Shown piece by piece: positions 4,859 through 34,446 of a DNA stretch of 64,000 nucleotides; within the stretch, counting starts at the first letter, position 1, and each line of letters opens with the position of its first letter. This DNA is from Candidatus Collierbacteria bacterium. GTDB taxonomy: Bacteria > Patescibacteriota > Microgenomatia > UBA1400 > JACPES01. A program made the position numbers and the translations under genes. Location: NCBI GenBank assembly GCA_016183365.1, contig JACPES010000002.1:12779-76778 (forward strand), read 5' to 3'. Below the pieces are notes generated by a model. It was not told where the DNA came from. It was given only the letters and a program-made list of their open reading frames with translations, and did no database searches.

Positions 4859-4861
4859 TAT

Positions 4862-7823: not shown

Positions 7824-7874
7824 CTGCTGGTTCGGGCTTGTCGGATTAATCAGAGAATGGTATCATTTCGCCAA

Positions 7875-8534
7875 ATGAACAGAAGACTTTTTATTTTGGG
7901 ATTGGTGTTTGTGGGATTGCTGGCTTTCCCAAAATTTGCTGTGGCTTCGGAGGGAACAGCTTTATTGACTTCGGTAGATAACGACTCCCGGTGCTTTTTG
8001 GCTTCAGTCTTGGTGGATGAAGGGGATTATCAAGTGGTTATGACTTGCCGGAATTTAACTACTCCCCCCGACGCCAACCGACTGTTTTATCTGGCTTGGG
8101 CGCGGCGTAAGGGCGCGGCAGAAGGACAGCAGGCTAAAACAGGGGGCTTAAAATTAGGCAAAGGAGTCTATTTCTCTTTAGGAGATATATCCGGCGGCAA
8201 ATTGAACGCCAGGGCCAGAGAAGCCTTTGAAGAAATATTGGTGACCGCGGAAGCTGATTCCGGTGTCAGCCAGCCCAGTTTAAGCGCTTTAGTTGTTTCC
8301 GGGCCGATGAGGGAGATTGATTTCGGAGATTCCGGTCAAAGCAATCTAAAATTTTTGCCGACCTCGACTATTGTCAAGGTGACATTAGCTCCAACTCCTG
8401 GTAAAATCGTCCCGTCTGTCGCTCAAAAGAGCGTAGCAGGAACAGCCGCCAGAGTATTTTTTACGATACTGGCGATTATTGTAGTCGGGGCGGTAGTCAT
8501 CTCAATTATTCAACGTCGCAGCGCCAGTAGATAG
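7875..8534 (+). CDS. secreted or membrane-anchored hypothetical protein
   Basis: Signal peptide MNRRLFILGLVFVGLLAFPKFAVA and a C-terminal TM anchor (FFTILAIIVVGAVVISII). The ORF could start as early as 7806. Confidence 0.5.
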   Translation: MNRRLFILGLVFVGLLAFPKFAVASEGTALLTSVDNDSRCFLASVLVDEGDYQVVMTCRNLTTPPDANRLFYLAWARRKGAAEGQQAKTGGLKLGKGVYFSLGDISGGKLNARAREAFEEILVTAEADSGVSQPSLSALVVSGPMREIDFGDSGQSNLKFLPTSTIVKVTLAPTPGKIVPSVAQKSVAGTAARVFFTILAIIVVGAVVISIIQRRSASR

Positions 8535-8597
8535 AATAGGGGAAAAGAGTAAGAAGTATGGAGTAAGCAAAAAGTCAGATTTCTTGACTCCCATCAG

Positions 8598-8670
8598 AGC
8601 CGAGACCGGGAATCGAACCCGGGGCCTCATTCTTACCATGAATGCGCTCTGCCAACTGAGCTATCTCGGC
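8598..8670 (-). tRNA. tRNA-Thr (anticodon GGT)
   Basis: The reverse complement reads GCCGAGATAGCTCAGTTGGCAGAGCGCATTCATGGTAAGAATGAGGCCCCGGGTTCGATTCCCGGTCTCGGCT, giving a cloverleaf with anticodon loop ATGGTAA. Confidence 0.8.
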
Positions 8671-9270: not shown

Positions 9271-9317
9271 ATTTTCACCCCACGAGTTTTTCAGTCATTC
9301 TCGTCCCCGTGTGTCCT

Positions 9318-9378
9318 TCTCGCGCAGACGGGAATCTATTTAAATAGATTCCTGGTCAAGCCAGGAATGACAAAGTAC
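9318..9378. repeat. palindromic repeat, family C (gggaatctatttaaatagattcc ... ggaatgacaaagtacg)
   Basis: Related copies at 40556-40621 and, diverged, at 16543-16655. All three end 10-25 nt before a plus-strand ATG. Confidence 0.55.
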
Positions 9379-9974: not shown

Positions 9975-10229
9975 TTTTCCTACAGGTAAAGAGCAAAATC
10001 AACCACCTTGAACAGAATCGCAGTTTCCTCCATTTTCGCTAAACCATAATATCCGACTAGCAATGGTTCTTCGATTTTGCATACCCGTCTGGCTTTGCCT
10101 GAAGAGTCGACTTCAGTTCTAAACTGAAATAATCCTGTTCTCGTTTCAGCCATATAGTGAATATTTTATCCAGTATCCTGACAAAGTTTTTCTATCTTGA
10201 CGATTCGGTTTTCTATCAGTTATTATAAA

Positions 10230-10261
10230 TTCCAATTAATTAATCAATTAATTAATTGGAA
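10230..10261. promoter_or_regulatory. 32-nt near-perfect palindrome immediately upstream of the TrpR/YerC-like gene; putative operator
   Basis: ttccaattaattaatcaattaattaattggaa, 7 nt before the ATG. A second copy lies at 10748-10779 just after the stop, and a third variant lies inside the CDS at 52004-52034. Confidence 0.45.
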
Positions 10262-10267
10262 TAAATT

Positions 10268-10720: not shown

Positions 10721-10747
10721 TTATTCTATTATTTTTTTCTTTATAAA

Positions 10748-10779
10748 TTCCAATTAATTAATCAATTAATTAATTGGAA
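10748..10779. promoter_or_regulatory. second copy of the 32-nt palindrome, downstream of the TrpR-like gene
   Basis: Sequence identical to 10230-10261. Confidence 0.45.
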
Positions 10780-10933
10780 TAAACGAGTGAGAGATTTTTT
10801 AAGATTTCTTAATAGAAACCTGTATAATTCTTAAAAGTGAGAGCAGAGTAAAAATAGGGCTGTAGTGAAATGGCCCGCCCGCAAAAGCTGTCGCTTTAGC
10901 GATTGCAGGCAGGCATCACGAGGTCTAAATTCT

Positions 10934-11007: not shown

Positions 11008-11103
11008 AGGTACCATACGATACCTGGTGGCGAGTGCAGAATTGTACCTGCTAAGGCACCATTCGGAGCCTGGCTTCGCCAGAAGCAAAAGCAGAATGTG
11101 CCG

Positions 11104-11146
11104 CCAATTGAAGGTCTGACCTTCAATATAGCTTCATATCAAGTAA
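11104..11146. repeat. REP-like palindromic element, copy 3
   Basis: ccaattgaaggtctgaccttcaatatagcttcatatcaagtaa. Confidence 0.7.
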
Positions 11147-11148
11147 TT

Positions 11149-11266
11149 TTATTCCAAGATAGCGAAAACCATGACCGTGAGGCCATGGATGAAGCGATAC
11201 AGATAGCCGCGGAGCGCACAGTGCGGAGCAAAAAACCATGTGAGTTGGCGCATGGTTTTTTTATAG
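11149..11266. repeat. about 118-bp direct repeat, copy 2
   Basis: See 9858-9974. Confidence 0.7.
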
Positions 11267-14622: not shown

Positions 14623-15522
14623 ATGCCCGAATCAGTCCCTGATAAAGAATCTACTCCCAGTCCCTACATTTCTCCGGAAGAAGACAAAGACAACGCCGGC
14701 CGGCTAAAGCCTGATGTGGCATATCAAGTTCACCATGACATTCGCCAAGAAGCCAAACGACAAGGTTTAGAAGTTAAGCCCGATGATTCCCCGGAAGAAA
14801 AGGAACGCAAAAACCAAGCGCTCAAACAACTCTTTGAAGAAAGGAGCGACAGCGATTTATCCGACTATCAGGCCACTCAAATCGTCGATCTCGAAGAAAA
14901 AGCTAGCCGAGACTCGTTGACAGGACTGCTGAATAGACGGGAATTTGGGAGGTTATTTAGCGAGCTCCTTCAACAATCAAATGAATCCGATCAGCCGATT
15001 CTTTTTTTGATGATTGACCTGGATCATTTCAAAAAAATGAACGATACTTACGGTCATCGGGTTGGCGACCAAGCTCTCCAATACTTGGCTCGGACATTGA
15101 CGCAGTCCGTCGAGATCGGCGACTTGGTTGCTCGCTGGGGCGGCGAAGAATTTACTATCGCCGTCAAACCTAAAAGCGGTCAGATCCTTGATCTAGACAA
15201 ATTATTCATTATCGCCGAGCGTATTCGGGGAAAAACTATTGATTTACTATCTAGAGATAAATATCAACTTACGCTTGGGGCCCCGGAAGAAACACTTCCC
15301 GACAAGATTACTTTAAGCGTCGGCGCCACTCTTACCAAGTCGGGAGATACCCTGGAGACCGTTTGTCAGCGGGCGGATGAAAATTTGTATATAGCTAAAA
15401 AGTCTGGCCGCAACCAATTATTCGGCGATAACGGCAAAATCATTTTGACTCCGTCCCCGGGCGGCCCGCCAGAAACGCTCCCGCGAAGCGGGATTTCGCC
15501 GACTCAACTTCCTGTGAGCTGA
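14623..15522 (+). CDS. GGDEF-domain protein, putative diguanylate cyclase
   Basis: LTGLLNRREF ... DLDHFKKMNDTYGHRVGD ... RWGGEEF (GGEEF active-site motif). Confidence 0.8.
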   Translation: MPESVPDKESTPSPYISPEEDKDNAGRLKPDVAYQVHHDIRQEAKRQGLEVKPDDSPEEKERKNQALKQLFEERSDSDLSDYQATQIVDLEEKASRDSLTGLLNRREFGRLFSELLQQSNESDQPILFLMIDLDHFKKMNDTYGHRVGDQALQYLARTLTQSVEIGDLVARWGGEEFTIAVKPKSGQILDLDKLFIIAERIRGKTIDLLSRDKYQLTLGAPEETLPDKITLSVGATLTKSGDTLETVCQRADENLYIAKKSGRNQLFGDNGKIILTPSPGGPPETLPRSGISPTQLPVS

Positions 15523-15530: not shown

Positions 15531-16484
15531 TTATGCCAGTTTTGTGTTAGGATGTCCGGCTAAGAATTGCTTCCAGGACACTGAATTTTTGCCTGGGAGC
15601 TGGACTTCGTCGATGACAAAAGAATGTTGAATGTTGAATGTTGCCCGCCCTCGGCCGAGCCGAGGCGAGGCCGGGGAATGTTGAATAAAGGAAAGATGGG
15701 TTTTTTTGATTGTAATTTCTGATTGTTTCCATTCGTCATTCTTCATTCGCCATTTAACATTGCTTTTTGCGCCGGGCCACGGCGTTACCGCCCTAATAAA
15801 TCTTTCTATCTCAACCGGTGATTTTTCCCAGTCAATCCGACCGGAGTCTTTGGTAAGTCTATGGGTGTAGGGAGTCGGAGATTTTAGCGGCTGCTTAACT
15901 TTATTTAATTGTCCGTTTTCTATCTTTTTTAGCGTTTCGACAATTAATTTACCACCGAGTATTCCTAGTTTTTTTGTGAGCGTTTCGCGGGTGTCAGATC
16001 TTATAATAGTTTTTGCTTGTCCCAACACCGGCCCCCGGTCTATTGCTTCAGTCATTTTCATAATGCTCACTCCGGTTTCTTTGTCACCTGCAGCTATTGC
16101 TTCAAAAACCGGAGATGCTCCGCGCCAGCGGGGTAAAAGCGAGGCGTGAACGTTAAGACAGCCGTATTTTGGCCACTTCAAAACTTCGGCCGGCAAAAAC
16201 GGCGGGCCGAAAGACGCCAAAACGATGGCGTCGGGTCGCGCAAGGCTGAAAGCGCAAGGCTGAAAGCTGAAGGCGGACGTAAGAGAATTGATGGATATGT
16301 CTTTAGGCTGTTTCGCTGGAATGATCTGAATTTTCTTTCGTCTTTCGTCCTTCATCCTTCGTCCTTTATCAATTGCTGCTTCACCCTTGGTGACAACAAT
16401 TGGTACTTCGTGCCCCGCCTTCAATAACGCCTCCAACACCGGCGGGGAAAACCACGGATCCGAGCCAAAGAAAATAATATTCAT
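15531..16484 (-). CDS. fmt: methionyl-tRNA formyltransferase with two in-frame insertions
   Basis: MNIIFFGSDPWFSPPVLEALLKAGHEVPIVVT ... LNVHASLLPRWRGASP ... IDRGPVL. Upstream codons back to 16571 lie in a repeat and were not used. Confidence 0.8.
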   Translation of the reverse strand: MNIIFFGSDPWFSPPVLEALLKAGHEVPIVVTKGEAAIDKGRRMKDERRKKIQIIPAKQPKDISINSLTSAFSFQPCAFSLARPDAIVLASFGPPFLPAEVLKWPKYGCLNVHASLLPRWRGASPVFEAIAAGDKETGVSIMKMTEAIDRGPVLGQAKTIIRSDTRETLTKKLGILGGKLIVETLKKIENGQLNKVKQPLKSPTPYTHRLTKDSGRIDWEKSPVEIERFIRAVTPWPGAKSNVKWRMKNDEWKQSEITIKKTHLSFIQHSPASPRLGRGRATFNIQHSFVIDEVQLPGKNSVSWKQFLAGHPNTKLA

Positions 16485-16542
16485 AATTTGAATTATAGTA
16501 TAAGATATGGATTTAACAGTTGTCATTGTCCCGGTTCCGCCG

Positions 16543-16655
16543 AGGATCCCGCTTAGCGGGACGAGAAACATTACTTGGCGGGCGACGCGGCAATCTATAT
16601 CAAACAGATTCCCACGCCCCGATCAAATCGGGACTCGGAATGACAAAAAGTACGG
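16543..16655. repeat. diverged copy of the family C palindromic repeat upstream of the PIN-domain gene
   Basis: gtcccgcttagcgggac ... aatctatatcaaacagattcc ... ccccgatcaaatcgggg ... cggaatgacaaaaagtacgg. Confidence 0.4.
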
Positions 16656-16661
16656 ATTATT

Positions 16662-17426
16662 ATGAAAACTCCAGCTGAAAGGAAAGAAACAGCCAGGCAA
16701 TTTCTAAAGGAACATACCGGTTCCGGTCAAAGAATAAAGACGCGGGCATTTTATGACGATGATCAGGATGAAATAATTCCCCAGCACGGCCGTAGGGGTA
16801 AAAAGACGGTTCATATAGAACTAAGGCAGGAAAAGTTAAAACATTCTACAACTTTTACCCGCCATTTGGTTGATGATGCTGAAAAAGAGTTTTCTTTCGG
16901 CAACTGGAGAAATGGTGTCGGCACCAGATCGGTGGGAAATCCTTTGGTACCGTTGGTGGTTGTTGACACCAGCGTTATCGTTCGGGCAATTGGAACAAAT
17001 CAGATGAAAGACTGTCGAAAGATTGTTGATTTAGTCACGGACGAGAAAATCAGGCCATGCGTCATTCACTCTTTGGTTCAAGAATATCGGTGGGTCATCG
17101 ACCGCGAGAGTCTTCCCGGTGGTATCCGATTTGACGAGCAAAGCCATCAACTGTTGGATGAATTCCTCGCCCGCTGTCTTGTTTTGTTTGGCTGGCCGGA
17201 AACCTTCCCGGCTACGATTGAAGCAGATCCATCGGATGATATTTTGTTAATCGCTCAAGCCCTGGCCCAAGAGCAACAGGGGAAGCCTTGCGCCATAGTA
17301 TCTCGCGATAACCACGTTCTTGGCCTCCGCAACGCTTCGGAATTAGATATCATACATCCGATCATATATCTTGCCCGACTGGTCACCGATCTTCCCCAAT
17401 CTCTTTTGTCACCCGATAACGATTAA
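16662..17426 (+). CDS. PIN-domain protein (putative nuclease) with an unknown N-terminal domain
   Basis: LVVVDTSVIV ... CAIVSRDNHVL are PIN-like acidic motifs. Confidence 0.5.
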   Translation: MKTPAERKETARQFLKEHTGSGQRIKTRAFYDDDQDEIIPQHGRRGKKTVHIELRQEKLKHSTTFTRHLVDDAEKEFSFGNWRNGVGTRSVGNPLVPLVVVDTSVIVRAIGTNQMKDCRKIVDLVTDEKIRPCVIHSLVQEYRWVIDRESLPGGIRFDEQSHQLLDEFLARCLVLFGWPETFPATIEADPSDDILLIAQALAQEQQGKPCAIVSRDNHVLGLRNASELDIIHPIIYLARLVTDLPQSLLSPDND

Positions 17427-17532
17427 GGATATTCCGTTGTCGGCCGGCAGATAGTCGTCACCAAATCGCCGAATCCTTCTCTTCTTTAGGCGAATGCCAG
17501 TCCGACGACCATGACAATGCACCTAGCCTTGA

Positions 17533-18405
17533 TCACTCAATATCCAAATTCGGGAGGAGATGGGGGGCGTTATTACATGCCCAATCCTTTTGCGCCGGCG
17601 TCATGTCATTCCACCGATCGCGAACCGCGTATTCCGCGCTTCTTAAGTAATAGCCGGAACTTGTCACTACTGTATTTTTTCCGGCAATGACGTGCTCAAC
17701 AAATCCAGCCGGTTCAGTTGTTTTGTATGAGACTGTATCTGGAGGGAGGGAAGCCGCCTGCGCATGGCAATAATCAACGCTCTGTCTGATTTCGGCGGTG
17801 TAATCACCATGGACCGGAGCTTGCCGCACTGCCCGGTCGACGGTTGTGTCGATAGCCCGGTTGACCACCTGCGTCTCGATCTGTCTAGCCAGGGGAATAT
17901 TCGTTAGCGGTTGTTTATCTGTTATTAACCCCAGCGTTGCCAGAGCCTTCATGAAAAACCAGGGTTGAGGCATTTCAGTCTCGGATTGCGCATAAGCCAA
18001 AGCCGCTTCCTTTGGCAATTGAGCATCAGGTAAAGTATTAATTTCGGTTCTCGCGACAGGTGGTGAATCAGATCGGGGGTGGGTATTTGCCGCAATCGCG
18101 CGGACAGTGGCGGTTGGGAATCCGGCTGGACTGGTGGTTGCTTGAATTTCTACGCGAGCTGTGTCACCGATGGCCAAACCCATTGCTTGCCTCACATCGG
18201 TATAAACACGGTGGCGGGCGAAATGTTCCAAATCAGCCGCTTTATCGAGTAGATGTCTGGCTACATTCCCAGGAGCAGTTGCAGCCGCGGACCGGTAAGC
18301 ATTGGCTCTATCAATGAGGCCGGATATTTGCCTGGCTGCTGTTTGGCTGATGTCTGTCGGGTAGGTTCCAAAAGCGATTTTTTGGTCAACGTTGCCTCTT
18401 GCCAT
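17533..18405 (-). CDS. hypothetical protein (last gene of the GC-rich block)
   Basis: 290 aa with no recognisable domain. About 53% GC against roughly 40% in the flanks. Confidence 0.5.
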   Translation of the reverse strand: MARGNVDQKIAFGTYPTDISQTAARQISGLIDRANAYRSAAATAPGNVARHLLDKAADLEHFARHRVYTDVRQAMGLAIGDTARVEIQATTSPAGFPTATVRAIAANTHPRSDSPPVARTEINTLPDAQLPKEAALAYAQSETEMPQPWFFMKALATLGLITDKQPLTNIPLARQIETQVVNRAIDTTVDRAVRQAPVHGDYTAEIRQSVDYCHAQAASLPPDTVSYKTTEPAGFVEHVIAGKNTVVTSSGYYLRSAEYAVRDRWNDMTPAQKDWACNNAPHLLPNLDIE

Positions 18406-18407
18406 AA

Positions 18408-19277
18408 TTAATCCTCAAAGGTAAACGTTATTCCGCCGGATACGGAAACTTCGCTTGAGACAAAGGTTGATGAGGCGGCAACGACCCCTGGACCTGGCCC
18501 GCCGATAACACCAACGCCGTGTTGATAGATATGAATTGTTGGCGGAGATCCATCAAAGCTAACTCCAGCTCCGAGGTGTTGGACAGCTTGGGCGCGAGCA
18601 GTAATTTTTGGGTGAACGCCGGCGGTAATTTTCTGACCCATTAACTCGGTTTGTATTCGGCCCAGCAGATCGCCGAAAGATTGAGCGAATGTCTCCAGCA
18701 TGCGATCGGCGGCTTGCAGACCGGTTTGCAAATTAACGGCCATTTGTGTTTGAACCGCCGCGTCCAAAACAGACATGTTTGGGGTAATCCTGCTGGTTAT
18801 TGCAGCGAATGCATCTTGAAGTCGCGCTGATTCCGCCGGTTCCTGGACATCCGGGTACGGCTGGTCATGTTTGATAATAGCACCGGGAGTGACAGACGTA
18901 GGCGGAGCCGGGAAAGATCGACGAACAATGGCTTTTAGCGCCAGATCGCCGCCGCCGCTTTGGTAAGCATTGGTTAGCATTAGCATGGTTTCTGGTGTCC
19001 ACCTTTTGGTGTAATCGCCAGTGGTTTTGTCTCCGAATTGCCATAAGTCTGCTTCGGGAGAATGAGCGCCGATGCCGTCTCTAACTAAGAGGGAAACGGC
19101 ATGCAAGCGCTCCAAGACCTCTTTCTGACCTGGAGCTAAATCTCCATAATGAAGCGCGGCGTAAATTTCACGATGAATTTGATCATCGGGATTGAATAGC
19201 CTGTGAGTAATAGCATTGCCACGGCCGACAGCACCATCAGTCATTCCTCTGGTAAACTCACTAATATTAATGGTCAT
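18408..19277 (-). CDS. hypothetical protein (GC-rich block)
   Basis: 289 aa with a Gly-rich C-terminus. A 2-nt spacer separates it from the downstream gene. Confidence 0.5.
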   Translation of the reverse strand: MTINISEFTRGMTDGAVGRGNAITHRLFNPDDQIHREIYAALHYGDLAPGQKEVLERLHAVSLLVRDGIGAHSPEADLWQFGDKTTGDYTKRWTPETMLMLTNAYQSGGGDLALKAIVRRSFPAPPTSVTPGAIIKHDQPYPDVQEPAESARLQDAFAAITSRITPNMSVLDAAVQTQMAVNLQTGLQAADRMLETFAQSFGDLLGRIQTELMGQKITAGVHPKITARAQAVQHLGAGVSFDGSPPTIHIYQHGVGVIGGPGPGVVAASSTFVSSEVSVSGGITFTFED

Positions 19278-19382
19278 AACAGTGCTTTATTGTATCCAAA
19301 TTTAACTTATCAGTCAACCCCCCGCGGTATAATTTTATCGCCTTAACCGACATTAATTGTCAACATAGTTTTGCTGGATGAG

Positions 19383-20414
19383 CTAAGTGGTGGAGCTTAT
19401 TTGCCTTTTGCCCCGTCGAGTAAAGCGACTGAAGATAACCGTGGGAATGGTTCCTGCCAATAAGCCCATAAATCCTCCGGTAAGAGTATTTTGCCAAAAA
19501 GTTTCAGTAGTAATAGGATAACCATGTTGGAGGGAGAAATAGGCGTAAAGCAGTGCTCCGGCAGGAGTGGCGATCGCAACCGGGATAGCTGCATCCGGCA
19601 AAACTTCAGCTCCCCAACCAATGGCAGAATGGGGTAGAGAAATAACTACCCCTATAATTCTGGCCAGAACACTCCCCGAAGTATTAATGGCAGAGCCGAC
19701 GCCCCTATCTACCAATTCAGCCATACTGACCAAAGTCTGTTCTCCTATTGCCTCTGTCAACTTAATAGCTTCAACTAGAGCCACTCGAGGAAACACCATC
19801 GTTCTCCTGCCGGAATTTTCTACCTTGGCAACAAAGAGATTAGTCTCGGCTTGCATAGCAGGCAGTTCGGCGATGGCAATTTCTTTTCTGGCCTGCATGG
19901 CCGTAACGCCAGCGCACACGGTGCGTTTAATTCCGTCAGCCACTAGATCAAAGAGCTGATCTTGAGGCATACCTTCGGGGATTTGGATCACCCCTTGTTT
20001 TTTTAGGCCATCAGCCAATTGAGCGAAGGCGTCAAACCTGGCTAAAGTTACTGTCGTGGCGCGAGCGATTCTAGCGGGAGCGTCCTTGCCTCGAATATCT
20101 TCAAGAATCCGATAGAACAAAGCAGCTGCTATCTGCTCACCGCCTTCGACGCCCCCGAAAGCTCCACCCACAATAGTTGTCAGCGCTGACCCAAGGAGAG
20201 ACTCTGCTTGAAGAAAGATTTGGGAATATGAAGGTCTAATATTATCCGGTTCCAGAGTTTCCGTCAATAATTTTCTGCCTGGACTCATCGCGTCTCCGAC
20301 ACCGATTCCAGTTGTTGGTCCGGTTCGACCTTCTTGTTCGAAGAACATAAGCCTTGTTGATTTAACCCAAAACTCCGCTAAATCTAGCGGAGTTGATGCA
20401 CTAGTTGTTTCCAA
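19383..20414 (-). CDS. hypothetical membrane protein, paralog of 21103-22251
   Basis: It has a TTIVGGAFGGVEGG motif, matching TTAVGGAIGGYKGG in the paralog, and C-terminal TM helices. Confidence 0.55.
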   Translation of the reverse strand: METTSASTPLDLAEFWVKSTRLMFFEQEGRTGPTTGIGVGDAMSPGRKLLTETLEPDNIRPSYSQIFLQAESLLGSALTTIVGGAFGGVEGGEQIAAALFYRILEDIRGKDAPARIARATTVTLARFDAFAQLADGLKKQGVIQIPEGMPQDQLFDLVADGIKRTVCAGVTAMQARKEIAIAELPAMQAETNLFVAKVENSGRRTMVFPRVALVEAIKLTEAIGEQTLVSMAELVDRGVGSAINTSGSVLARIIGVVISLPHSAIGWGAEVLPDAAIPVAIATPAGALLYAYFSLQHGYPITTETFWQNTLTGGFMGLLAGTIPTVIFSRFTRRGKRQISSTT

Positions 20415-20426
20415 ATCTAGTTTGGA

Positions 20427-21083
20427 TTACTCCAGTGTATCATTTAGTAATCTCTCTTTCTCGTTAATGCCGATCATCCAGGCAAAACCGCCAATGGCAT
20501 AAATGGCATCAACCGCCAATCTTGCCGTCCCCAGGCCGATTAAGGCATCACAGACGATTAAACCTGGTCCGCCAAAACCCGCAGCCATCCTCGCGCCCTC
20601 TCTTACTGCCTGAACCCAGGGGTTAACCCTCTCAATGCGATGAGGAGCAAATTGAGCCTCCACATTTGCCTCTACCTGTCTTGCGACTAATTCCTCAATC
20701 GTCTCACCTTCCTCCAATCGAAGTTTGCCAGTTGCTTTCAACCCTGCTATTTTCTTTATGACTTCAGGTTCTACTCCTTGCTGGATCTGTTGACGCAATT
20801 GCGCATTCTTAGCCCTAACGGTTCTGTCATACCACTTGGAGCGTGTTAAACCAAAACTCTGTACAGCACCGCCTCCAAAGGCCAAAAATTCAATCAAAGC
20901 CGCCGGAACCCATTCGGCTAGATCAGTACTTAACGTAATCCCGGAGGCAACACCTGGTGCGGCCTCCGCATTTTTAGCGATCAGTGCCACAGCTAATCCG
21001 AAGAGTACTCCCCAGGCAGGAGTGGGAAGGCGAGACCCTCTCTCTTTGGCAGCGACAAACATTTTTTCTATATTTTCATTCAT
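20427..21083 (-). CDS. hypothetical membrane protein (GC-rich block)
   Basis: N-terminal TM helix (PAWGVLFGLAVALIA), an AFGGGAVQSFG motif and a hydrophobic C-terminus. Confidence 0.5.
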   Translation of the reverse strand: MNENIEKMFVAAKERGSRLPTPAWGVLFGLAVALIAKNAEAAPGVASGITLSTDLAEWVPAALIEFLAFGGGAVQSFGLTRSKWYDRTVRAKNAQLRQQIQQGVEPEVIKKIAGLKATGKLRLEEGETIEELVARQVEANVEAQFAPHRIERVNPWVQAVREGARMAAGFGGPGLIVCDALIGLGTARLAVDAIYAIGGFAWMIGINEKERLLNDTLE

Positions 21084-21102
21084 TTTTTCCTCCTTTGATT
21101 AA

Positions 21103-22251
21103 TTACTTTGTCTCTTCCGCATGATCAACGAGTCTAACTTCGCCTTCAACAATTTCCGGTTCATTTGCTTCAGAATTCTCTGTGAACCGTTTCCCATCGA
21201 AATAGGAAGAATTTCTCCGCCGATCCAACCAGGCAACAGCGGTTCCTATTGGAACGGCTATCATCAGACCAAGTACGCCAGAGAATCCTACAGTGAGTAA
21301 CTTTTCTCCAAGAGTGGCTGCGGGAATCAGACTGCCCGCGGCAATTAAAACGGAGGTGCCTACTGGAAAAAGCGCGAAGGCCGCCATCCCGGCGGCAGCT
21401 CCCGGAGTAATTTCTTCGGTGACTTCTTTAATGCCATCGGCAATTCCTTTGAACGGCCCAACGATTAAAGCGGCGGTTGTCCTTCCGGGAATTTCTGCTC
21501 CTACGGCCAAGGTTTGAGCCAGAGCCTCCATCATTCCCGGACCGATTTCCTTAGCTAATTGAACGGGAAGGCGACCAAAGATTTCAACAGCTGCTCCGAC
21601 AAAGGGTGCTACCGTTAATCTTCCTGCGGCTTCTGCCTGCAAAACCATGGTTTTTAACTCAATATCCAGAGCTTCCTGTTCAACTTTGGCCAGCCTTTTT
21701 TCTCCCCCGGCTTCTTGTTCCCGCAGGGTAGTAACAGCGTTCATGAAGCGGGCGGCCACGACGACGGCTTCTCCGGGAGCAGTTTCTTTTTCAAAAACGC
21801 CGAGCCGTTTTAGCTGTGTAATGAGCTCCATTGCTGATTGGGCGTTAAGTAGGGTATCACCCCATTCATAGACAGTTCGCCAGAGTTCGGCTCGGCCTCG
21901 GGTTTCAGTTAGGCCCATCTCTATTTCCTCCACGGTGCGCATCAGCCCGCCTTTATATCCGCCTATTGCCCCGCCAACTGCAGTTGTGGGCAAACTGGCC
22001 AAACCAGCGGCCACTTGCTGGACAAATTCTAAGGGATTAGTGCCAATTCTTTCGGTTAAGGCGTCAACAGCGGTTTTAACTGGAGTCGGGACAACTTCTC
22101 TTTGATTGACTAGGGAGATGGGGCCGTCTCCGATTAGTGGTGGTAAATCATGACGTTTTAGTTCTTCGAAGTCAACTTGGACAGAACTAACGACTACTGT
22201 CGATTCTGCTGGAACTGGTAATCCTGGTGATTTCTCTGGACTTAGACCCAT
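21103..22251 (-). CDS. hypothetical membrane protein, paralog of 19383-20414 (first gene of the block)
   Basis: 382 aa; soluble N-terminal domain with a Gly-rich motif and C-terminal TM helices. Confidence 0.55.
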   Translation of the reverse strand: MGLSPEKSPGLPVPAESTVVVSSVQVDFEELKRHDLPPLIGDGPISLVNQREVVPTPVKTAVDALTERIGTNPLEFVQQVAAGLASLPTTAVGGAIGGYKGGLMRTVEEIEMGLTETRGRAELWRTVYEWGDTLLNAQSAMELITQLKRLGVFEKETAPGEAVVVAARFMNAVTTLREQEAGGEKRLAKVEQEALDIELKTMVLQAEAAGRLTVAPFVGAAVEIFGRLPVQLAKEIGPGMMEALAQTLAVGAEIPGRTTAALIVGPFKGIADGIKEVTEEITPGAAAGMAAFALFPVGTSVLIAAGSLIPAATLGEKLLTVGFSGVLGLMIAVPIGTAVAWLDRRRNSSYFDGKRFTENSEANEPEIVEGEVRLVDHAEETK

Positions 22252-22472
22252 TTTAATCTTAATCTGGACAGGAAAATATTTGGGAAGAAAAATTTGTTAA
22301 GCTGATAATATCATTTCTCATTGTTATGTCAAGTTTCAGGTTATAATCGCCTTATGCCAGCCGGATTTAATTTAGCAAAGACCACAATTCTTCCAAACCT
22401 TAGCCAAATTCTAGCGGTCAATGGTTCTGATGGGGTGCCGGTTTCTAATCAGGCGGAACCTAATTAAAAACG

Positions 22473-22508
22473 TCAATACTTAAAAGCGATAGCTTTCAAG
22501 TATTGACA
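22473..22508. promoter_or_regulatory. palindromic putative operator gtcaatactt-N16-aagtattgac in the divergent promoter region
   Basis: gtcaatacttaaaagcgatagctttcaagtattgac. Related sites at 23368-23403 and 29292-29327 share the gcgatagc core. Confidence 0.45.
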
Positions 22509-22539
22509 TAATGATAAATTATCTGTACCATTTTTTTAA

Positions 22540-23388
22540 ATGGGAAGAGCTAAAGAAACCGCTCGGGTAATTTCTAAACTAACCGGCGAAATCGCCGTTA
22601 CAGCTCTGGATTTGGTAGTGCTTGCCGCAGCTGCCGCCGGCGGTTTCTTTTTATACGGCCCTAGTGGAAAAGATCTATATGTTGATTATAAAACCAAAAA
22701 AGCCCTGGCCGCAGCCGATCGTTTTTTTACCAAATGGAATCAATCTAATTTTCGTCGCGCGGTCGGTCGGGCAGCCGGGGAGGGGTTGATAAAACGGATT
22801 GCAGGTGGTTACGAGCTAACAGAAACCGGCCAGGAAAAATTAAGAGAATTGCTCCCGAATTACAAAAAACAGCGCCCCTGGGATGGCCGTTTATGGTTGA
22901 TAACTTATGATATTCCCGAAGATACAAAGGAGAAAAGAGAAAAATTTAGAAAATTCTTGAAAGAAATTGGTTGCCGCATGGTTCAGAAATCTGTCTGGCT
23001 GTCGCTGAAGGATCCTCATATCTGGTTAGTCGTCAGAATAAATTCTCTCCGTCTTCAGGGGAGGGTGATTATCTCCTGTTTGGGCAAAGATGGGAGTTTA
23101 GGAGATGAAGGGGTTACCAAAATGGTTTCTCGGATATTTGACCTGAAGAAAATAAATAGAGAGTATCGACGCTGGGTAAAACATGCTTTGGTAACTGATA
23201 AAGCAGGCATTTTCCATCACGGCTTGCGTTTTTTGGCGATTTTAAGAGACGACTCCGTGGTTCCCAAGGAATTGTTGCCTGTCGATTGGATGGGGGAGCA
23301 AGCTCTGAAAATATTTGAAGATAAATTCAAACCTCAAATGGGTCTGATAGGAAACTATTTGGTTAACGTCAATACTTCAAAGCGATAG
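22540..23388 (+). CDS. PaaX-family-like transcriptional regulator with an N-terminal membrane anchor
   Basis: RPWDGRLWLITYDIPEDTKEKREKFRKFLKEIGCRMVQKSVWLS matches the PaaX C-terminal signature (W.G.W....IPE...R......L...G......SVW.S). Preceded by a winged-helix-like region, with a TM helix at residues 20-42. Confidence 0.5.
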   Translation: MGRAKETARVISKLTGEIAVTALDLVVLAAAAAGGFFLYGPSGKDLYVDYKTKKALAAADRFFTKWNQSNFRRAVGRAAGEGLIKRIAGGYELTETGQEKLRELLPNYKKQRPWDGRLWLITYDIPEDTKEKREKFRKFLKEIGCRMVQKSVWLSLKDPHIWLVVRINSLRLQGRVIISCLGKDGSLGDEGVTKMVSRIFDLKKINREYRRWVKHALVTDKAGIFHHGLRFLAILRDDSVVPKELLPVDWMGEQALKIFEDKFKPQMGLIGNYLVNVNTSKR

Positions 23389-23403
23389 CAACAGAGTATT
23401 GAC
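23368..23403. promoter_or_regulatory. second copy of the gtcaatactt ... agtattgac palindrome, just past the regulator's stop codon
   Basis: gtcaatacttcaaagcgatagcaacagagtattgac. Confidence 0.4.
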
Positions 23404-23671
23404 TACTAATGTAAAAAATCAATATAAGTCAATCAAATATAAGTCAATCAAAATTTAGGGATAGAATTTTGTTATCTCTTCGGCCAGTTAGGCGGATGTG
23501 TCTTAACAACAGCTATCGATAAAAAGATTTATGTGAGTTACTCTGTCAAAGAAGTAGTTGACCAAATAGATCGACTCCAACACGAACTGGTTCGTGAAGC
23601 GATGAAGATAATGGGAATAAAGTCGGGAGAGGTGTGGATATTTAGGTTGGTTTGACCGGTCAAGATGACAT

Positions 23672-24961
23672 TTACTGCGGGCACTGGTAATTGGAAGGTT
23701 GACAGGTTGCGTTGCAGCATTTGCTGCTTTGGCATTGGGAGTTGGAACTACAACTTTGTCCATTGGGTTTTCTAGTTGGGGTGGGAGTGGGCGTGGGCAG
23801 CGGGTTTCCGCAACAGTAACCCCCGGAAGGGACACAAGTCCCCGAGGCGGTATATTTTCCCAACTGGTAGCAACTGACTCCGTAATAACACTGCCCTGTA
23901 CAAGTTGAAGCCGGAGTGGGAGTGGAAGTAGGTCTCGGTGTGGGAGTGGAAGTAGGACGAGGAGTAGGTGTGGGAGTAGGCTTTTTGGTCGGTGTGGGAG
24001 TAGGCTTTTTGGTGGGTGTGGGAGTGGAAGTAGGTCTCGGTGTGGGAGTAGGGGTGGGTGTGCCAATGGTAAATCTATTACTTGCTGAAACAGGGACTAA
24101 TTGACTATCTTGCGTGAAAGAATTGGAGGCATAAACACTCCAGTAATATTCGTGACCACGGATGAGATCGAACACATTACACTCGATTGCTTCTTCAGCG
24201 GGGGGGTTGGAGTAAAATCTTTGTTCGCATGTAGTTCTGGTTGTGCCGCTGGTTACGTCATACAACTGATAATAATGGCTAACAGGCCTATAACAATTGT
24301 GCCAGATAATTCGTGAATTAAGATGTACATCTTGCACGTCAGGGGGAAATTTGGTGTAGTTCGGCGGGTAATCAAGGATAATTTCCGGTTTCTGTCCTGG
24401 ACAGGCGTTAACACTGAAATTTCTGGTTTCAGAAAGTAATTCCAGGTAGGTTCTACTACTGGCTTTCACTTGCCACGAGTATTCGTTGCCCCAAGAAACC
24501 GGTACTGAACACTCAAATTCCCAAACTGATTTTCCAAACTCGTATGATTCACAGGATGGGATGGTAGTACCGGTGGTTAAGTTGGAAAAGACGATATAGT
24601 ATCTTGTCTCTTCCGAGCACTCCTTAATATCAAAAGATCCGGTAAGTTTAACCATACTTGTATCATCGGGAAAAGAGAAATTATCTGCCGGGGTAGAGAG
24701 AGTAATTTCAGGGAAGTCTCCAGTACAGAGCGGTATAGCTGGTATTGGCATAATTGATTTGGAGGCCAAGGAATAGATTCTTTGGGTATTTTGAAAAAGA
24801 AATATTCCTATTACCAGACCAATTGCCAGACCAACACCGAGTCGAAACAGGACAGTTAGATTTCGAGAATCGAGATTTTTTTTGAGTTTTTTGAGATTAT
24901 TTTGAAATTGCTTCATTAGCATCAGTATTATTAGTGTTTCACTTGGCGACATGAATGTCAA
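23672..24961 (-). CDS. cell-surface protein: signal anchor, beta-rich domains, Pro/Thr linker and a Cys-rich C-terminal module
   Basis: N-terminal TM helix ([22 protein letters not shown]), a [23 protein letters not shown]... linker, and a C-terminal cluster of about 18 Cys. Confidence 0.55.
23905..24062. repeat. tandem repeats that encode the Pro/Thr-rich linker
   Basis: Repeated ggtgtgggagtggaagtaggtctc units. Confidence 0.6.
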
Positions 24962-25025
24962 GGGGTTGACCCTCGGATGCTTGACGGCGCGATAAGAAGT
25001 TTGGGTGAATTGTATCTAAATTTTC

Positions 25026-25772
25026 CTAGATTCCTTCCAAAGCGATCAGGTCGTGGTTATTTTGTTGGTACAGCTGATGGCCTTCACCCAGCGTGTGGTC
25101 AACAAACAACACGCCGTTGAGATGGTCGATTTCGTGTTGAAAGACGCGGGCCGATAAATCCGTCAAAGTAAAGTTTGACTTTACTTTACTTGAGATATCA
25201 GCTATTGAGGCGGAGTAAATGTCTGGATCGGTAAGGTCTTTTTCGGATAATACAACGGCCCGGGCGGTGATAGTCGGCCAGCGGAGCACCGGGCCGAAGT
25301 AACGGGGAATCGACAGGCAGCCCTCAAGAAACGGTTTCCCATCTTCGGTCAGCTCATCACCCAAGGTCTTTTCTAGGCTATGATCGGTGATTTCGGGGTT
25401 AAGATAGAAGTGGAGCTGGGGCCTGGCAGTTTTCGCTCGCTGGATTTTTCGGTTGGTGGCAGCTCCACTGCTTCGGCCTCGAACTTCACCCAGTGCGGCC
25501 CACTTTGCCGGAGCTCCAGCGAGGCGAGTCTGCCACGCGACCTCGGACGCGCTCGCTTTTAAGTTGAGGTCTTCTGGTAGCAGGGTGGCGAATACCCGCA
25601 GCGGTTTCCCGACTTGAATTGCCGATAATCCCACTCCTTGCGGGTCGTGCTGGCTCTTGAGGGTTTGGCCTAAATCGATCAGAAAATCGATAAATTCCGC
25701 GTCAATTTTTCCTACCGGTTCGCTTTTGCGCCGCAAAATTTCCGTCTCCTCCGGCACAGTCAAAATTCTCAT
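25026..25772 (-). CDS. def: peptide deformylase with a roughly 70-aa GC-rich in-frame insertion
   Basis: GVGLSAIQVG, EGCLSIP and QHEIDHLNG motifs are present. 248 aa against a typical length of about 170. The insertion maps to about 25370-25580. Confidence 0.8.
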   Translation of the reverse strand: MRILTVPEETEILRRKSEPVGKIDAEFIDFLIDLGQTLKSQHDPQGVGLSAIQVGKPLRVFATLLPEDLNLKASASEVAWQTRLAGAPAKWAALGEVRGRSSGAATNRKIQRAKTARPQLHFYLNPEITDHSLEKTLGDELTEDGKPFLEGCLSIPRYFGPVLRWPTITARAVVLSEKDLTDPDIYSASIADISSKVKSNFTLTDLSARVFQHEIDHLNGVLFVDHTLGEGHQLYQQNNHDLIALEGI

Positions 25773-28102: not shown

Positions 28103-29173
28103 TTAAATCACTACATCATGGGGAAGGCTTTCTTTCCATCCGGCCGGAGTGACGCGGATAAATTGGGCGTTGGCCTGAAGTTCCCGAAGATTTTTGGCTC
28201 CGCAGTAGCTTAAGCCGGAGCGCAGCCCGCCCAGATAACGTTCTATCACTTTCTCTACCGGCCCGCGACAGGGGATCAGAGCTTCTACGCCTTCGACTCT
28301 TGACCATTGATCGGCTATACTTTTGCCGTTACTTCCGCCTAATTTAAGACGGTGATTGGTAGCTCCCATAGTGGAGGAACCGCGGAAATGCTTGTATTTC
28401 TGCCCATTCCGGATCACGATTCCCCCCGGGGTTTCGTCACAGCCGGCAAAAATATTTCCTCCCATGATAGCGGTGGCCCCCGCTGCCAATGCTTTGACGG
28501 CATCGCCGGGTTGTTTAATACCGCCATCAGCCACCAATCCGATTTTCCGGCGGCGGAATTTTGCAATTGCGGCGGCGGCAGATTGAATGGCAGTAAGCTG
28601 CGGAACTCCGGCTCCGGCAATAATTCTGGTGGTGCAAGCCGACCCGGGCCCAACTCCGACTTTGATGGCGTCAGCCCCGGCCGCAATCAAAAATTCGGCT
28701 CCGGCGGCGGTGGCAATATTACCGGCTAAGATAGGAATTTTAGGAAATCTCTTTTTGACGGTTGTGACGGCTGCGGCGACAAACAGTGAGTGGCCGTGAG
28801 CCGCGTCAACCACTATCAAATCGGCTCCGGCAGCGATCACAGCTTGAACTCGTTCTATTAATCCGTTGGAAATGCCTACGGCGGCGGCTACCGGCAAACG
28901 ACCAGGTTTAGCTGATTTTACCCGGGCGACTTCGGCGGCCTCATTTTCCGGGGACTGAAATTGATGAATGACCCCCATTCCTCCCAATTTGGCCAAGACT
29001 GTGGCCATTTGAAAACCAGTGACAGTATCCATATTAGCGGACAAAAATGGAGCCGGCAGTTGCAGGGCCGGGGTAATCCAGCCGGTGGTATCGGCTTCGG
29101 ATCGGGACCGCAAGGGTGTCAGTTTCGGCACCAGCAAAACATCGTCATATGATAAACCCAGGGGAATATCCAC
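28103..29173 (-). CDS. IMP dehydrogenase / GMP reductase family protein without CBS domains
   Basis: [17 protein letters not shown] ... SANMDTVTG ... [11 protein letters not shown] is TIM-barrel IMPDH-like. Confidence 0.7.
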
Positions 29174-29375: not shown

Positions 29376-29403
29376 GAATTCAATTATTTAAATAATTGAA
29401 GTA
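29376..29403. terminator. perfect palindrome ttcaattatttaaataattgaa just 3' of mreB; possible bidirectional terminator or binding site
   Basis: Identical palindromes at 34794-34817 and 53617-53640, each just 3' of a gene end. Confidence 0.4.
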
Positions 29404-29408
29404 TTTAT

Positions 29409-32686: not shown

Positions 32687-34446
32687 AGTTTGGACCGTTG
32701 GAATTATCAATCGCTGATAGAAAACAAAATTTTTTGCCGCTGGGAATAATGGTCGTAATTATGATGTCCGCAGTGGGTATAATTTTGGCCAGACTGACGG
32801 AATTGACGGTTTTTCGCGGAGGAGAATTAAGGCGCCGGGCGGACGAAAACAGGATTTTGGTTAGGGTGGTCCCGGCTCCCCGGGGAATAATTTTTGATAA
32901 AAATGGAAAGGCATTGACTCGGAATACTCCGGATGGCAGAGCCTATCCATTTGACCGGAATTTTTCTCACTTGACCGGATATATCGGCGAAGCTTCAGAG
33001 GAAGAAATTAAAAGCGATTCATCTCTAAACCCTGGTAATATTTTAGGAAAAACCGGATTGGAAAAGCAATACGATAAGGAGTTGCGCGGAATCGATGGAG
33101 CTGAATTGATTGAAGTGGATGCAAATGGCAATTTACTTGAGGTTTTAGAGGATCAATTACCACAGGCGGGAAAAGATATTTATACTTATTTAGATGTGGA
33201 TTTACAAGTTGCCATGACTGAAAATTTAGGGGGAAGAAAAGGGGCGGCTGTGGCAATTGATCCGGTGGATGGCTCAGTTTTGGGATTGGTTTCCAGTCCG
33301 TCGTATGACCCGAATATATTTCAGAAAACTCTGAATACAATCATTCCGGAAAACTCAGAAAACTCGGATGGCCGGAAAGTCGGAATGTCAGAAAATCAGA
33401 AAGTCGGACCCTCTGGTTCTCCGAGTTCTCCGAGTGTTCTGGACTTATTGAATGACACCGTCAATATGCCATTATTTAACCGCGCCATTTCCGGCGAATA
33501 TCCGCCGGGATCTATTTTTAAATTGGTGACGGCGGCAGCGGGATTGTCAGAAAATAAAATTAACCGCCAAACTTTAGTTAGGGATACCGGTGAGATCAGA
33601 GTCGGAGACTTTAGATTCGGCAATTGGTATTTTGATCAGTATGGAAAAACCGAAGGCGAAATCGGAGTGGTCAGGGCTTTAACCAGAAGCAACGATATTT
33701 TTTTCTATAAAGTCGGGGAATGGTTGGGGCCGGATCTATTAGCAGGATGGGCTAAAAAAATGAAACTGGGTAAAAAAACAGGTATTGATTTATCCGGAGA
33801 AGCCGATGGTTTGGTTCCTGACCCTAAATGGAGGGAAAAGGCTACAGGTGAAAGATGGTTCTTGGGAAATACTTATCATATGGCCATCGGTCAGGGTGAT
33901 GTTCAATTGACTCCATTGCAGGCGGCGGTGATGACCAGTACGGTGATTACCGGCAAACGCTGTACGCCGCGGATTAAACAATTAACAATCAGCAATCAGC
34001 AATCAGCAATTTCTTGTGAAGATACAGGAGTTTCTAAAAGTAACCGCAATTTAATTCTTGAAGGAATGGTGGGATCCTGCAGTCCGGGCGGGGTGACCTT
34101 TCCGTTTTTCCCTTGGAATCAATCCATTGAAGGTCAGACCTTCAATGAAGCCATACATCAATCAAACGGTATGAGCGGTTATCCGGCTGTGGCGTGTAAA
34201 ACTGGCACGGCCCAGCATGGTGGAAAACAGACTAAACCGCACGCGTGGATTGTAGTCGCTGCCCCAATTATTGAAAGCCAACCATCAGTAAAATCAGCAA
34301 TTAGCAATTCTTCTTATCAACTCGATTTAGACTCTCCCAAACGAATAATTTTAGTCGTTCTTGTCGAAGATGCCGGCGAGGGCTCCTACGAAGCCGCTCC
34401 TGTGGCCAAAAAGATTTTGGAAAAATGGTTTGAAACCAATAAATAA
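32683..34446 (+). CDS. mrdA: penicillin-binding protein 2 (peptidoglycan transpeptidase) with three in-frame repeat insertions
   Basis: AAVAIDPVDGSVLGLVSSPSYDPN ... SIFKLVTAAAGL (SxxK) ... KTGTAQ. Insertions at 33347-33440, 33978-34012 and 34126-34164. Confidence 0.85.
   Translation: MKFGPLELSIADRKQNFLPLGIMVVIMMSAVGIILARLTELTVFRGGELRRRADENRILVRVVPAPRGIIFDKNGKALTRNTPDGRAYPFDRNFSHLTGYIGEASEEEIKSDSSLNPGNILGKTGLEKQYDKELRGIDGAELIEVDANGNLLEVLEDQLPQAGKDIYTYLDVDLQVAMTENLGGRKGAAVAIDPVDGSVLGLVSSPSYDPNIFQKTLNTIIPENSENSDGRKVGMSENQKVGPSGSPSSPSVLDLLNDTVNMPLFNRAISGEYPPGSIFKLVTAAAGLSENKINRQTLVRDTGEIRVGDFRFGNWYFDQYGKTEGEIGVVRALTRSNDIFFYKVGEWLGPDLLAGWAKKMKLGKKTGIDLSGEADGLVPDPKWREKATGERWFLGNTYHMAIGQGDVQLTPLQAAVMTSTVITGKRCTPRIKQLTISNQQSAISCEDTGVSKSNRNLILEGMVGSCSPGGVTFPFFPWNQSIEGQTFNEAIHQSNGMSGYPAVACKTGTAQHGGKQTKPHAWIVVAAPIIESQPSVKSAISNSSYQLDLDSPKRIILVVLVEDAGEGSYEAAPVAKKILEKWFETNK

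Follow-up and report, generated by a model that had tools for sequence, protein, structure and literature searches.

Bacteria of the Candidate Phyla Radiation (CPR) have tiny genomes, and we describe here a region from one of them, a 64-kb stretch of contig JACPES010000002.1 of a Candidatus Collierbacteria bacterium (the whole stretch analysed, hereafter the window), in which five consecutive open reading frames (ORFs; genes A to E) lie next to a divergently transcribed gene for a PaaX-like protein (gene R) bracketed by copies of a 36-bp palindrome. Several described systems come close to parts of this region. Repetitive extragenic palindromic (REP) elements are present in hundreds of copies per genome and have a conserved hairpin, and in the REP/RAYT (REP-associated tyrosine transposase) systems these short intergenic palindromes have no promoter or terminator preference, often form doublets, and flank one protein-coding gene, the product of which carries an HUH/Y1 (IS200/IS605-like) transposase domain. 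Membrane-acting defence modules, such as RexAB, Zorya ZorAB and the transmembrane (TM) effectors of CBASS/Pycsar, are small and patchy multi-gene cassettes of variable location, which encode membrane proteins with large cytoplasmic parts. The tripartite alpha-pore-forming toxins (Hbl/Nhe, AhlABC and SmhABC; ClyA superfamily) are encoded by three-gene operons, and two of their components are paralogous, all-helical proteins of 300-400 aa with hydrophobic helix pairs. Finally, the PaaX family consists of repressors of adjacent divergent operons, and PaaX of E. coli recognises a widely spaced inverted repeat, TGATTC-N27-GAATCA, and autorepresses at its promoter Px, from which it occludes RNA polymerase (PMC9493321).

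A preliminary description of the region had read the five ORFs and gene R as a single horizontally acquired block under the control of the PaaX-like regulator. Our analysis confirmed the underlying observation in part and supports the interpretation in part, and points to a composite of three separate components, all located at one variable position between def and fmt, rather than to one five-gene regulated island; we give this reading a probability of about 0.55. The three are a conserved cassette of genes A, B and C, the two strain-specific genes D and E, and gene R with its palindrome, arranged as follows (positions are those of the window):

21103-22251, minus strand: gene A, 382 aa
20427-21083, minus strand: gene B, 218 aa
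19383-20414, minus strand: gene C, 343 aa counted from a TTG start
18408-19277, minus strand: gene D, 289 aa, soluble ORFan
17533-18405, minus strand: gene E, 290 aa, soluble ORFan
22540-23388, plus strand: gene R, 282 aa, PaaX-like, divergent from gene A

The same five co-directional minus-strand ORFs were recovered as had been described, with spacers of 2, 105, 12 and 19 nt in the order E-D-C-B-A, and their placement outside known families was borne out, as genes A to E gave zero matches in Pfam, NCBIfam, PHROGs and PADLOC, even at E<=1. The stretch is also present in the Logan assemblies of SRR12113419/20, and gene C is identical to the NCBI protein HYU89_00365 of Candidatus Collierbacteria bacterium (CPR, Microgenomates), encoded on a contig of 175,921 bp. 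The NCBI call for this protein is 321 aa, and its homologues align from around residue 45 onward, so that the ATG at 20348 (321 aa) is likely to be the true start of gene C, rather than the TTG. With this start the B-C spacer becomes 78 nt, and the equivalent spacer in one of the other cassette loci (L004) is 79 nt.

The order A-B-C was kept in five further CPR-like loci (L004, L005, L006, L008 and L009), with a B homologue between A and C in 5/5 and a 4-nt overlap of the A stop and B start codons in 3/5, and no counterparts of D, E, R, the neighbouring surface protein (S) or the neighbouring PIN gene were found in these five loci. Of the module first proposed, genes A to C and their order recur in these other loci, and genes D and E and the five-gene order do not; the conserved unit is of three genes, not five. 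The surroundings of the cassette vary: in L006 a bare triad is placed between mreB (62% identity to that of the window) and a homologue (36%) of the window's wzy/tetratricopeptide repeat (TPR) gene, with spacers of 77 and 7 nt, in L004 the cassette is followed by a run of small unknown genes, and in L009 it lies between a pair of PIN and ribbon-helix-helix (RHH) genes and an AAA_14/DUF4143 ATPase gene, which is followed by AbiEii. This ATPase matches the PADLOC defence candidate PDC-S01 (E 1e-77). On a further contig (L007), which stops before B and C, gene A and the gene of a large serine recombinase (Resolvase, Recombinase and Zn ribbon) lie ~0.6 kb apart, and the 3′ end of the recombinase gene abuts tRNA-Thr(tgt). 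Synteny and the patchy distribution together support the cassette being accessory and mobile, at varying chromosomal sites in related CPR bacteria; base composition gives no such support. The tRNA-Thr(ggt)/tRNA-Tyr/tRNA-Thr(tgt) cluster of L007 (725-1141) is the same as that at 7152-8670 of the window, and the tRNA-Thr(tgt) at which the recombinase element with gene A is inserted in L007 is followed in the window by the first copy of the palindrome.

Gene A encodes, in this order, a disordered N-terminus, a Gly-rich motif (TTAVGGAIGGYKGG), long helices and two C-terminal hydrophobic helices (residues ~285-343), after which come RRRN and a tail that closes with a conserved I-E-G-x-[FVY]-x-V motif. 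Hydropathy shows a comparable pair in the C-terminal hydrophobic bundle of gene C, which has a Gly-rich motif of its own (TTIVGGAFGGVEGG). Both motifs had been noted before with their genes swapped, as TTAVGGAIGGYKGG belongs to 21103-22251 and TTIVGGAFGGVEGG to 19383-20414. Family members of the A type have 394-434 aa, a variable Pro-rich N-terminus and a tail closing in I-E-G-x-[FYV]-x-V, whereas those of the C type are shorter (294-333 aa), and the features best conserved are the Gly-rich motif, an invariant Glu and an invariant Pro. Genes A and C are without a signal peptide, and their helical N-terminal parts of ~270 residues are therefore probably cytoplasmic. The proposed paralogy of A and C was not significant by BLASTP, and was found at the level of profile-profile comparison (hhalign), with a probability of 85% for profiles of 2+3 sequences and of 97.7% (E 2.5e-12, 251 colinear columns) for profiles of 7+7 sequences; the two are ancient paralogues. 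Gene B is a membrane protein, as had been stated. Its N- and C-terminus are hydrophobic: a signal-anchor-like segment (AEA/AP) at the N-terminus is followed by another hydrophobic segment and a helical, charged middle part, and the hydrophobic region at the C-terminus carries an invariant Asp (D179). We rejected gene B as a third paralogue of this family, since it is unrelated to A by profile comparison.

An exhaustive search of 1.84 billion cluster-representative proteins with a joint A/C profile gave 11 matches to A/C-type proteins, and when 5.8 billion proteins were searched through a word index, A had a single relative and C had two, of which one was C itself. None of the 13 A/C family members had a match in Pfam, and searches of the PDB sequences with single proteins and with profiles gave nothing meaningful. 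Relatives of A and C were absent from IMG/VR, and gene A was absent from GenBank phages and PLSDB (tblastn). A scan of JGI metagenomes with A/C peptide patterns also found no relatives; these patterns were too narrow, as L007 is itself a JGI contig. The A-B-C family is previously undescribed, extremely rare and without detectable link to any described domain or fold, a novelty by exclusion that concerns a family seen about a dozen times in >15 billion predicted proteins, and that gains importance only if a function is found. The cassette has a probable promoter of its own, judged by its match to the consensus, at 22305-22332 on the minus strand (TTGACA-16-TG-n-TATTAT), which is the best σ70-like site of the region (11/12 matches) and lies ~55 nt upstream of the start codon of A. 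The intergenic region between A and R additionally contains a perfect TATAAT (22343-22348) six bases ahead of an ATG, which opens an ORF of 37 codons (22355-22468, plus strand) ending just before the second copy of the palindrome; the ORF could represent a short leaderless gene, or could have arisen by chance.

A single relative of E, a strain variant that is 94% identical, was found in 5.8 billion proteins, and D was found in this strain lineage only. Codon changes between gene E and the variant are synonymous in 9 cases and non-synonymous in 16, with an even distribution among the codon positions, and the tail of gene D has 4 synonymous and 16 non-synonymous changes. The two genes are strain-level ORFans, on which purifying selection is weak or absent. 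Neither had relatives in IMG/VR, or in GenBank phages or PLSDB by tblastn. Gene D also matched Fab heavy chains in the PDB (E 0.005-0.4), which we discounted as noise, given how heavily this family is over-represented. The 105-nt spacer between C and D contains a promoter-like sequence, TTGACT-17-TACAAT (19289-19317), and D and E probably form a transcription unit separate from A-B-C.

In three related genomes (L010-L012; Collierbacteria GW2011_GWB2_45_17, a Beckwithbacteria metagenome-assembled genome (MAG) and one further MAG) the gene order is mreB (minus strand), wzy/TPR, def, fmt and M50 peptidase, with def and fmt adjacent at <1 kb, whereas they are 8.4 kb apart in the window:

15531-16571: fmt
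16572-25025: fmt-def interval of 8.4 kb, holding the PIN_3-like gene, E-D-C-B-A, R and surface protein S
16662-17426, plus strand: PIN_3-like gene
23672-24961, minus strand: surface protein S, Cys-rich, with a PT-linker
25026-25772: def

The block is absent from the same site in these relatives, which supports its being an insertion relative to them. A closer relative (L025, fmt 56% identity) carries a different insert of 4.7 kb at the def/fmt junction, consisting of a PIN/RHH pair, unknown genes and a palindrome doublet, and the junction is thus a variable hotspot, which makes it useful for comparative work. The PIN-like and RHH-like proteins of this insert (L025 1568-2288) are toxin-antitoxin-like. 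In another genome (L022) a homologue of the window's PIN_3-like gene, 64% identical, adjoins fmt (3058-3513), from which we infer that the PIN gene of the window probably predates the insertion of A-E. A GGDEF diguanylate cyclase gene (14623-15522, between fmt and the M50 peptidase gene) and an IMPDH/GMP-reductase-like gene (28103-29173, between the wzy/TPR gene and mreB) are absent from these spots in L010-L012, so that the whole mreB-fmt neighbourhood is variable, and not just the def/fmt junction. There were no integrase or recombinase genes, tRNA targets or flanking direct repeats in the window around the block, nor any att-like direct repeats flanking it.

The GC content had been given as about 53% for the block and about 40% for its flanks. 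We measured 0.499 for the block and 0.429 for the rest of the window, with per-gene z-scores of 1.1-1.9, and other genes of the window have an equal or higher GC content (def 0.527, IMPDH-like 0.543, mreB 0.506). At the third codon position (GC3), genes A-E range from 0.415 to 0.481 around the window mean of 0.438 (z -0.3 to 0.6), and the excess is limited to codon positions 1 and 2, where it reflects proteins rich in Ala and Gly and poor in Lys, Asn and Ile. With native GC3 and an excess at positions 1 and 2 only, the compositional argument for a foreign origin fails, and we rejected it, as synonymous sites show no deviation. Of the proposed horizontal acquisition, the insertion and the variable location of the cassette stand, and the GC argument does not.

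Gene R had been described as a divergent PaaX-like gene whose product has an N-terminal TM helix, and both features were found: the Cas2-like central domain (PaaX_M, PF20803, residues 112-158) was matched with E 1.2e-11 (45 bits, gathering cutoff 24), and hydropathy showed a strong hydrophobic helix at residues 13-41. The match to TIGR02277 reached 42.1 bits (cutoff 264.55) over residues 67-263, that to PaaX_C reached 21.5 bits (cutoff 22), and for the N-terminal part the PaaX model PF07848 was not reported and a weak winged helix-turn-helix (wHTH) match to HVO_A0261_N (E 0.029) was seen. R is therefore PaaX-like at the domain level, and not a PaaX equivalog. It shares with PaaX of E. coli and Pseudomonas the central Cas2-like domain, above the Pfam threshold, and the alignment to TIGR02277, and differs by its extra N-terminal TM helix, by the missing match to the N-terminal Pfam model, and by the absence of paa genes from its flanks. 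The Cas2 matches cover only residues 118-155, the genes beside R are without a Cas1 domain, no CRISPR-like array was found in a repeat scan of the window, and the palindrome copies are 0.9-15 kb apart; R as a CRISPR-adaptation Cas2 was rejected on the short match and the lack of an adjacent cas1 and of an array. No relatives of R were found in GenBank phages or PLSDB (tblastn), and a literature search on PaaX with Cas2, and on REP elements in Patescibacteria, returned nothing relevant. A homologue of R, 76% identical and with the same N-terminal hydrophobic helix, is present on a metagenome contig (L015) among entirely different neighbours.

The palindrome has the form GTCAATACTT-N16-AAGTATTGAC (36 bp, with zero matches expected by chance and 3 G/C in the 10 positions of its arms), and a profile search (nhmmer) found exactly four copies in the window:

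7280-7315: copy 1, between tRNA-Thr(tgt) and tRNA-Tyr
22472-22507: copy 2, GTCAATACTT-N4-GCGATAGC-N4-AAGTATTGAC, 33 nt upstream of the ATG of R
23368-23403: copy 3, overlapping the last codons and stop codon of R, with an orthologous copy in L015
29292-29327: copy 4, 82 nt past the 3′ end of mreB and 119 nt ahead of the IMPDH-like gene

The bracketing of R by palindromes, as first reported, holds up far beyond chance, with copy 2 shifted by one base, and the copy that had been placed upstream of mreB lies downstream of it, at a site that is conserved at the orthologous position in another genome (L016). A degenerate 36-mer scan of JGI metagenome contigs found 22 further stretches, which together with the copies of the window gave 26 distinct instances and the consensus GTCAATACTT-N3-TGCTATAGCA-N3-AAGTATTGAC. 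Variants with the centre GCTGTCGC form doublets: each pairs one copy with the centre GCTATAGC and one with GCTGTCGC, the starts of which are in every case exactly 54 nt apart, and the linker is rich in A/T:

L015: 159-248 and 1168-1257
L017: 665-754
L018: 1578-1667
L020: 9533-9622
L025: 3527-3616

In the window the palindromes are all single, and next to R the centre is a hybrid (GCGATAGC). In L015 the two doublets bracket the homologue of R on both sides. The neighbours of the palindromes are mixed, and include genes for a GT2 glycosyltransferase, a carbamoyltransferase, an AAA ATPase, ABC-2 permeases, LepA, MurJ, HepT, NYN, NUDIX and fmt/HAD. The palindrome was absent from 89 kb of the other cassette loci and related genomes, and also from IMG/VR viral contigs, and its absence from the other cassette loci decouples R and the palindrome from A-B-C. 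It is a dispersed, lineage-wide repeat that frames the gene of R itself and is separate from the triad, and its appearance is that of a protein-binding site in three parts or of a REP-like repeat. A role as a DNA-uptake-like sequence was rejected, since lone arms outside the palindromes were about as frequent as chance predicts (6 with <=1 mismatch, ~3.5 expected). Just downstream of copy 3, the convergent intergenic region between R and S contains a perfect tandem direct repeat (AATATAAGTCAATCA x2, 23421-23450).

The right arm of copy 2 supplies the -35 sequence (TTGACA, 22503-22508) of a promoter-like site for R, TTGACA-17-TACCAT (22503-22531), and the layout with the -35 inside the arm is kept in both genomes, with a -10 17 nt downstream (TACCAT in the window, TAATAT in L015). 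The predicted -10 of R in the window (22526-22531) ends 8 nt ahead of the ATG, and the R mRNA would consequently be leaderless, while the homologue in L015 has a leader of ~55 nt with GGAGG. The resemblance to the PaaX operator lies in the widely spaced inverted repeat (36 bp here, 39 bp for PaaX) and its overlap with the regulator's own predicted promoter; the conserved centre of 8-10 bp, the 54-nt doublets and the dispersal beside unrelated genes are different. The -35 inside the arm, the bracketing in two genomes and the PaaX-like geometry of the repeat, that is, position and family analogy, would fit R binding the palindrome and regulating its own gene, for which we see an even chance. R may also act genome-wide at the dispersed palindromes. 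This link between R and the palindrome is the most testable lead of the region. R is a concrete candidate for a protein that binds DNA globally or is associated with repeats, in a phylum that is uncultivated and whose regulation is barely understood.

The explanation that best accommodates these data, and which carries the probability given at the outset, starts from A-B-C as a self-promoted cassette of three genes, which would be co-transcribed and, in three loci, translationally coupled between A and B. The three products may assemble into a single heteromeric complex of the cytoplasmic membrane, in which A and C would each contribute a large, all-helical N-terminal part, probably cytoplasmic, and a C-terminal pair of hydrophobic helices, and the cassette would be accessory cargo that moves among chromosomal sites of related CPR bacteria. 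D and E are strain-specific ORFans, probably transcribed separately. R would be an independent neighbour, a membrane-anchored wHTH/Cas2-like protein of the PaaX family, most likely bound to the 36-bp tripartite palindrome; like E. coli PaaX at Px, it would probably repress its own promoter, the -35 of which is within the palindrome arm, and would also occupy the other dispersed copies, rather than being a dedicated regulator of the cassette. As for the function of A-B-C, we tentatively favour a membrane effector of the conflict or defence type, acting by abortive infection or by exclusion through membrane perturbation, over a housekeeping machine, because of the accessory, mobile distribution and the toxin-antitoxin (TA), Abi and PDC-S01 neighbours in one locus, although we infer this at odds well short of even. 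In genomes as tiny as those of CPR bacteria, an accessory cassette that is kept and moved likely matters for the epibiotic lifestyle or for conflict with phages and hosts.

With the membrane-acting defence modules A-B-C shares the small and patchy cassette of variable location and membrane proteins with large cytoplasmic parts, and one copy lies among AbiE, PIN and PDC-S01 genes; it differs from them in having no PADLOC match, no MotA/ExbB or other known domain, and no evident sensor or enzyme partner. The three-gene layout with two paralogous helical components likewise recalls the tripartite toxins, from which A-B-C differs in the absence of a sequence match, in Foldseek comparisons with AhlB, SmhB, MakA and YaxA (E >3, TM-score ~0.15), in the lack of signal peptides on A and C, and in the hydrophobic segments of A and C, which do not form a central head domain but are anchors at the C-terminus with basic residues behind them. 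The resemblance to both is in gross layout only, and every feature of membership that could be tested came out negative.

Several points weigh against the explanation given above. The genomes used as synteny references are distant (fmt 30-56% identity), and native-like GC3 indicates that the block has not recently been acquired from a donor of different base composition. AlphaFold2 (AF2) models of A and C are poor (pLDDT 32.6 with 4 sequences for A and 54.8 with 13 sequences for C), fold searches with them gave generic helix matches only, and the membrane topology of A, B, C and R was derived from hydropathy alone. The positive-inside rule gives no clear cytoplasmic placement for the DNA-binding part of R. 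Most of the cassette contigs are 4-7 kb long, which makes neighbourhood statistics weak, and a clear defence-island context is seen in 1/6 loci only (L009). In L006 the cassette has the orientation of the wzy/TPR gene and lies 7 nt upstream of it, an ordinary-operon look that would also fit an envelope function.

The alternative that fares best, though still unlikely, is that A-B-C belongs as a module to some integrated mobile element (a prophage, an integrative and conjugative element or a plasmid remnant), with a function in entry exclusion, DNA transfer or lysis, that a decayed fragment of this element is left in the window, and that D and E are its decaying cargo. The serine recombinase abutting tRNA-Thr(tgt) close to gene A in L007, the small unknown genes after the cassette in L004, the weak constraint on D and E and the variable location of the cassette would all agree with such an element, and are set against the absence of relatives from IMG/VR, GenBank phages, PLSDB and PHROGs, the absence of a recombinase from the window and of direct repeats around the block, and the bare triad of L006, which is without any other element genes. 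A little less probable is a role of A-B-C as an envelope or cell-shape membrane complex, a lineage-specific housekeeping accessory to the mreB/wzy-like neighbourhood that would be inherited vertically and often lost. Native GC3, the co-oriented position of the L006 cassette between mreB and the wzy/TPR gene, the location of the window's cassette in the same conserved mreB-wzy-def-fmt neighbourhood and its strong, constitutive-looking predicted promoter speak for such a complex; the very patchy distribution among the 1.84 billion representatives, the absence from this neighbourhood in L010-L012 and L025, and other copies beside a serine recombinase or TA/Abi genes speak against it.

A further, doubtful possibility combines two separate systems, in which the palindromes are a REP-like element with R as its cognate protein, either propagating the repeats or pinning dozens of sites to the membrane, and A-B-C is independently a new CPR-specific membrane conflict system. 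As in REP/RAYT systems, the palindromes are short, intergenic and without promoter or terminator preference, often occur as doublets, and flank one protein-coding gene, which is R both here and in L015. The differences are the lack of an HUH/Y1 transposase domain in R, the low density (4 per 64 kb) and the absence of hairpin covariation in the spacer. If true, the repeat and R would be a new, non-HUH partnership of repeat and protein in CPR bacteria.

We regard as slightly more doubtful again that the palindromes act as intrinsic terminators in both directions, or as promoter elements of a general kind, with no specific link to R. Copy 2 was flagged as terminator-like on the minus strand by a scan, many copies have flanking A- and T-tracts, the arms end in TTGAC[A/G], and several copies directly follow stop codons. 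T-tracts, however, have no link to incoming genes, being present in 10/25 cases where a gene reads into the hairpin and in 16/33 where none does, and about a quarter of the sites are in divergent and about a quarter in convergent intergenic regions (~5 divergent, 4 convergent and 10 tandem), as expected for random placement. Complementarity within the spacer (45/104) does not exceed that of shuffled sequences (48.7), the arms (3 G/C in 10 positions) give no GC-rich stem, a -10 hexamer at 16-18 nt from an arm is not enriched (6/59), and R has palindromes on either side in two genomes, although its neighbours differ between them. On the T-tract, -10 and complementarity counts we rejected the palindrome as a terminator, a general -35 element or a continuous hairpin.

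The least probable alternative is that of the preliminary description, one horizontally acquired module of five genes controlled by R through flanking palindromic operators, since the divergence of R from A, the palindrome in the A-R intergenic region, the repression of adjacent divergent operons by the PaaX family (PMC9493321) and the insertion relative to related genomes are outweighed by the absence of R and the palindrome from 5/5 other cassette loci, the different neighbours of R in L015, the lack of conservation of D and E with A-B-C, a palindrome that lies ~140 nt upstream of the best promoter of A and overlaps the -35 of R instead, the many unrelated genes beside the palindrome and the missing GC3 signal. 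The claim of a regulator-controlled block is not upheld, as R adjoins the cassette in this genome only, and R probably does not control A-B-C.

Besides the 36-bp palindrome, other palindromic repeats occur between the genes of the window, in at least five families that have 2-4 copies each and include TTGAAGGTCTGACCTTCAA, ATTCCAATTAATTAAT...ATTAATTGGAAT, ACTTCAATTATTTAAATAATTGAAGT and GC-rich AAGGCCTGGCC hairpins:

4807-4862, 5630-5685, 11095-11150 and 34114-34169: repeat family
10223-10265, 10741-10783 and 51986-52028: repeat family
29377-29406, 34793-34822 and 53616-53645: repeat family
39545-39586, 41331-41372 and 50694-50735: repeat family
9312-9372 and 40557-40617: repeat family

A piece of the repeat at 40557-40617 is also present in L009. 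The genome of the window is unusually rich in conserved intergenic palindromes. Surface protein S, which is without a family match, has an N-terminal TM helix, a Cys-rich C-terminus and a linker of the type (P-T-P-T-P-[RK]-[PK]-T-S-T), which is coded by DNA repeats with a 12/24-nt periodicity (23892-24082). The def and fmt products are longer than those of L010 (248 versus 178 aa and 346 versus 297 aa, respectively), and both have internal low-complexity insertions relative to that genome.

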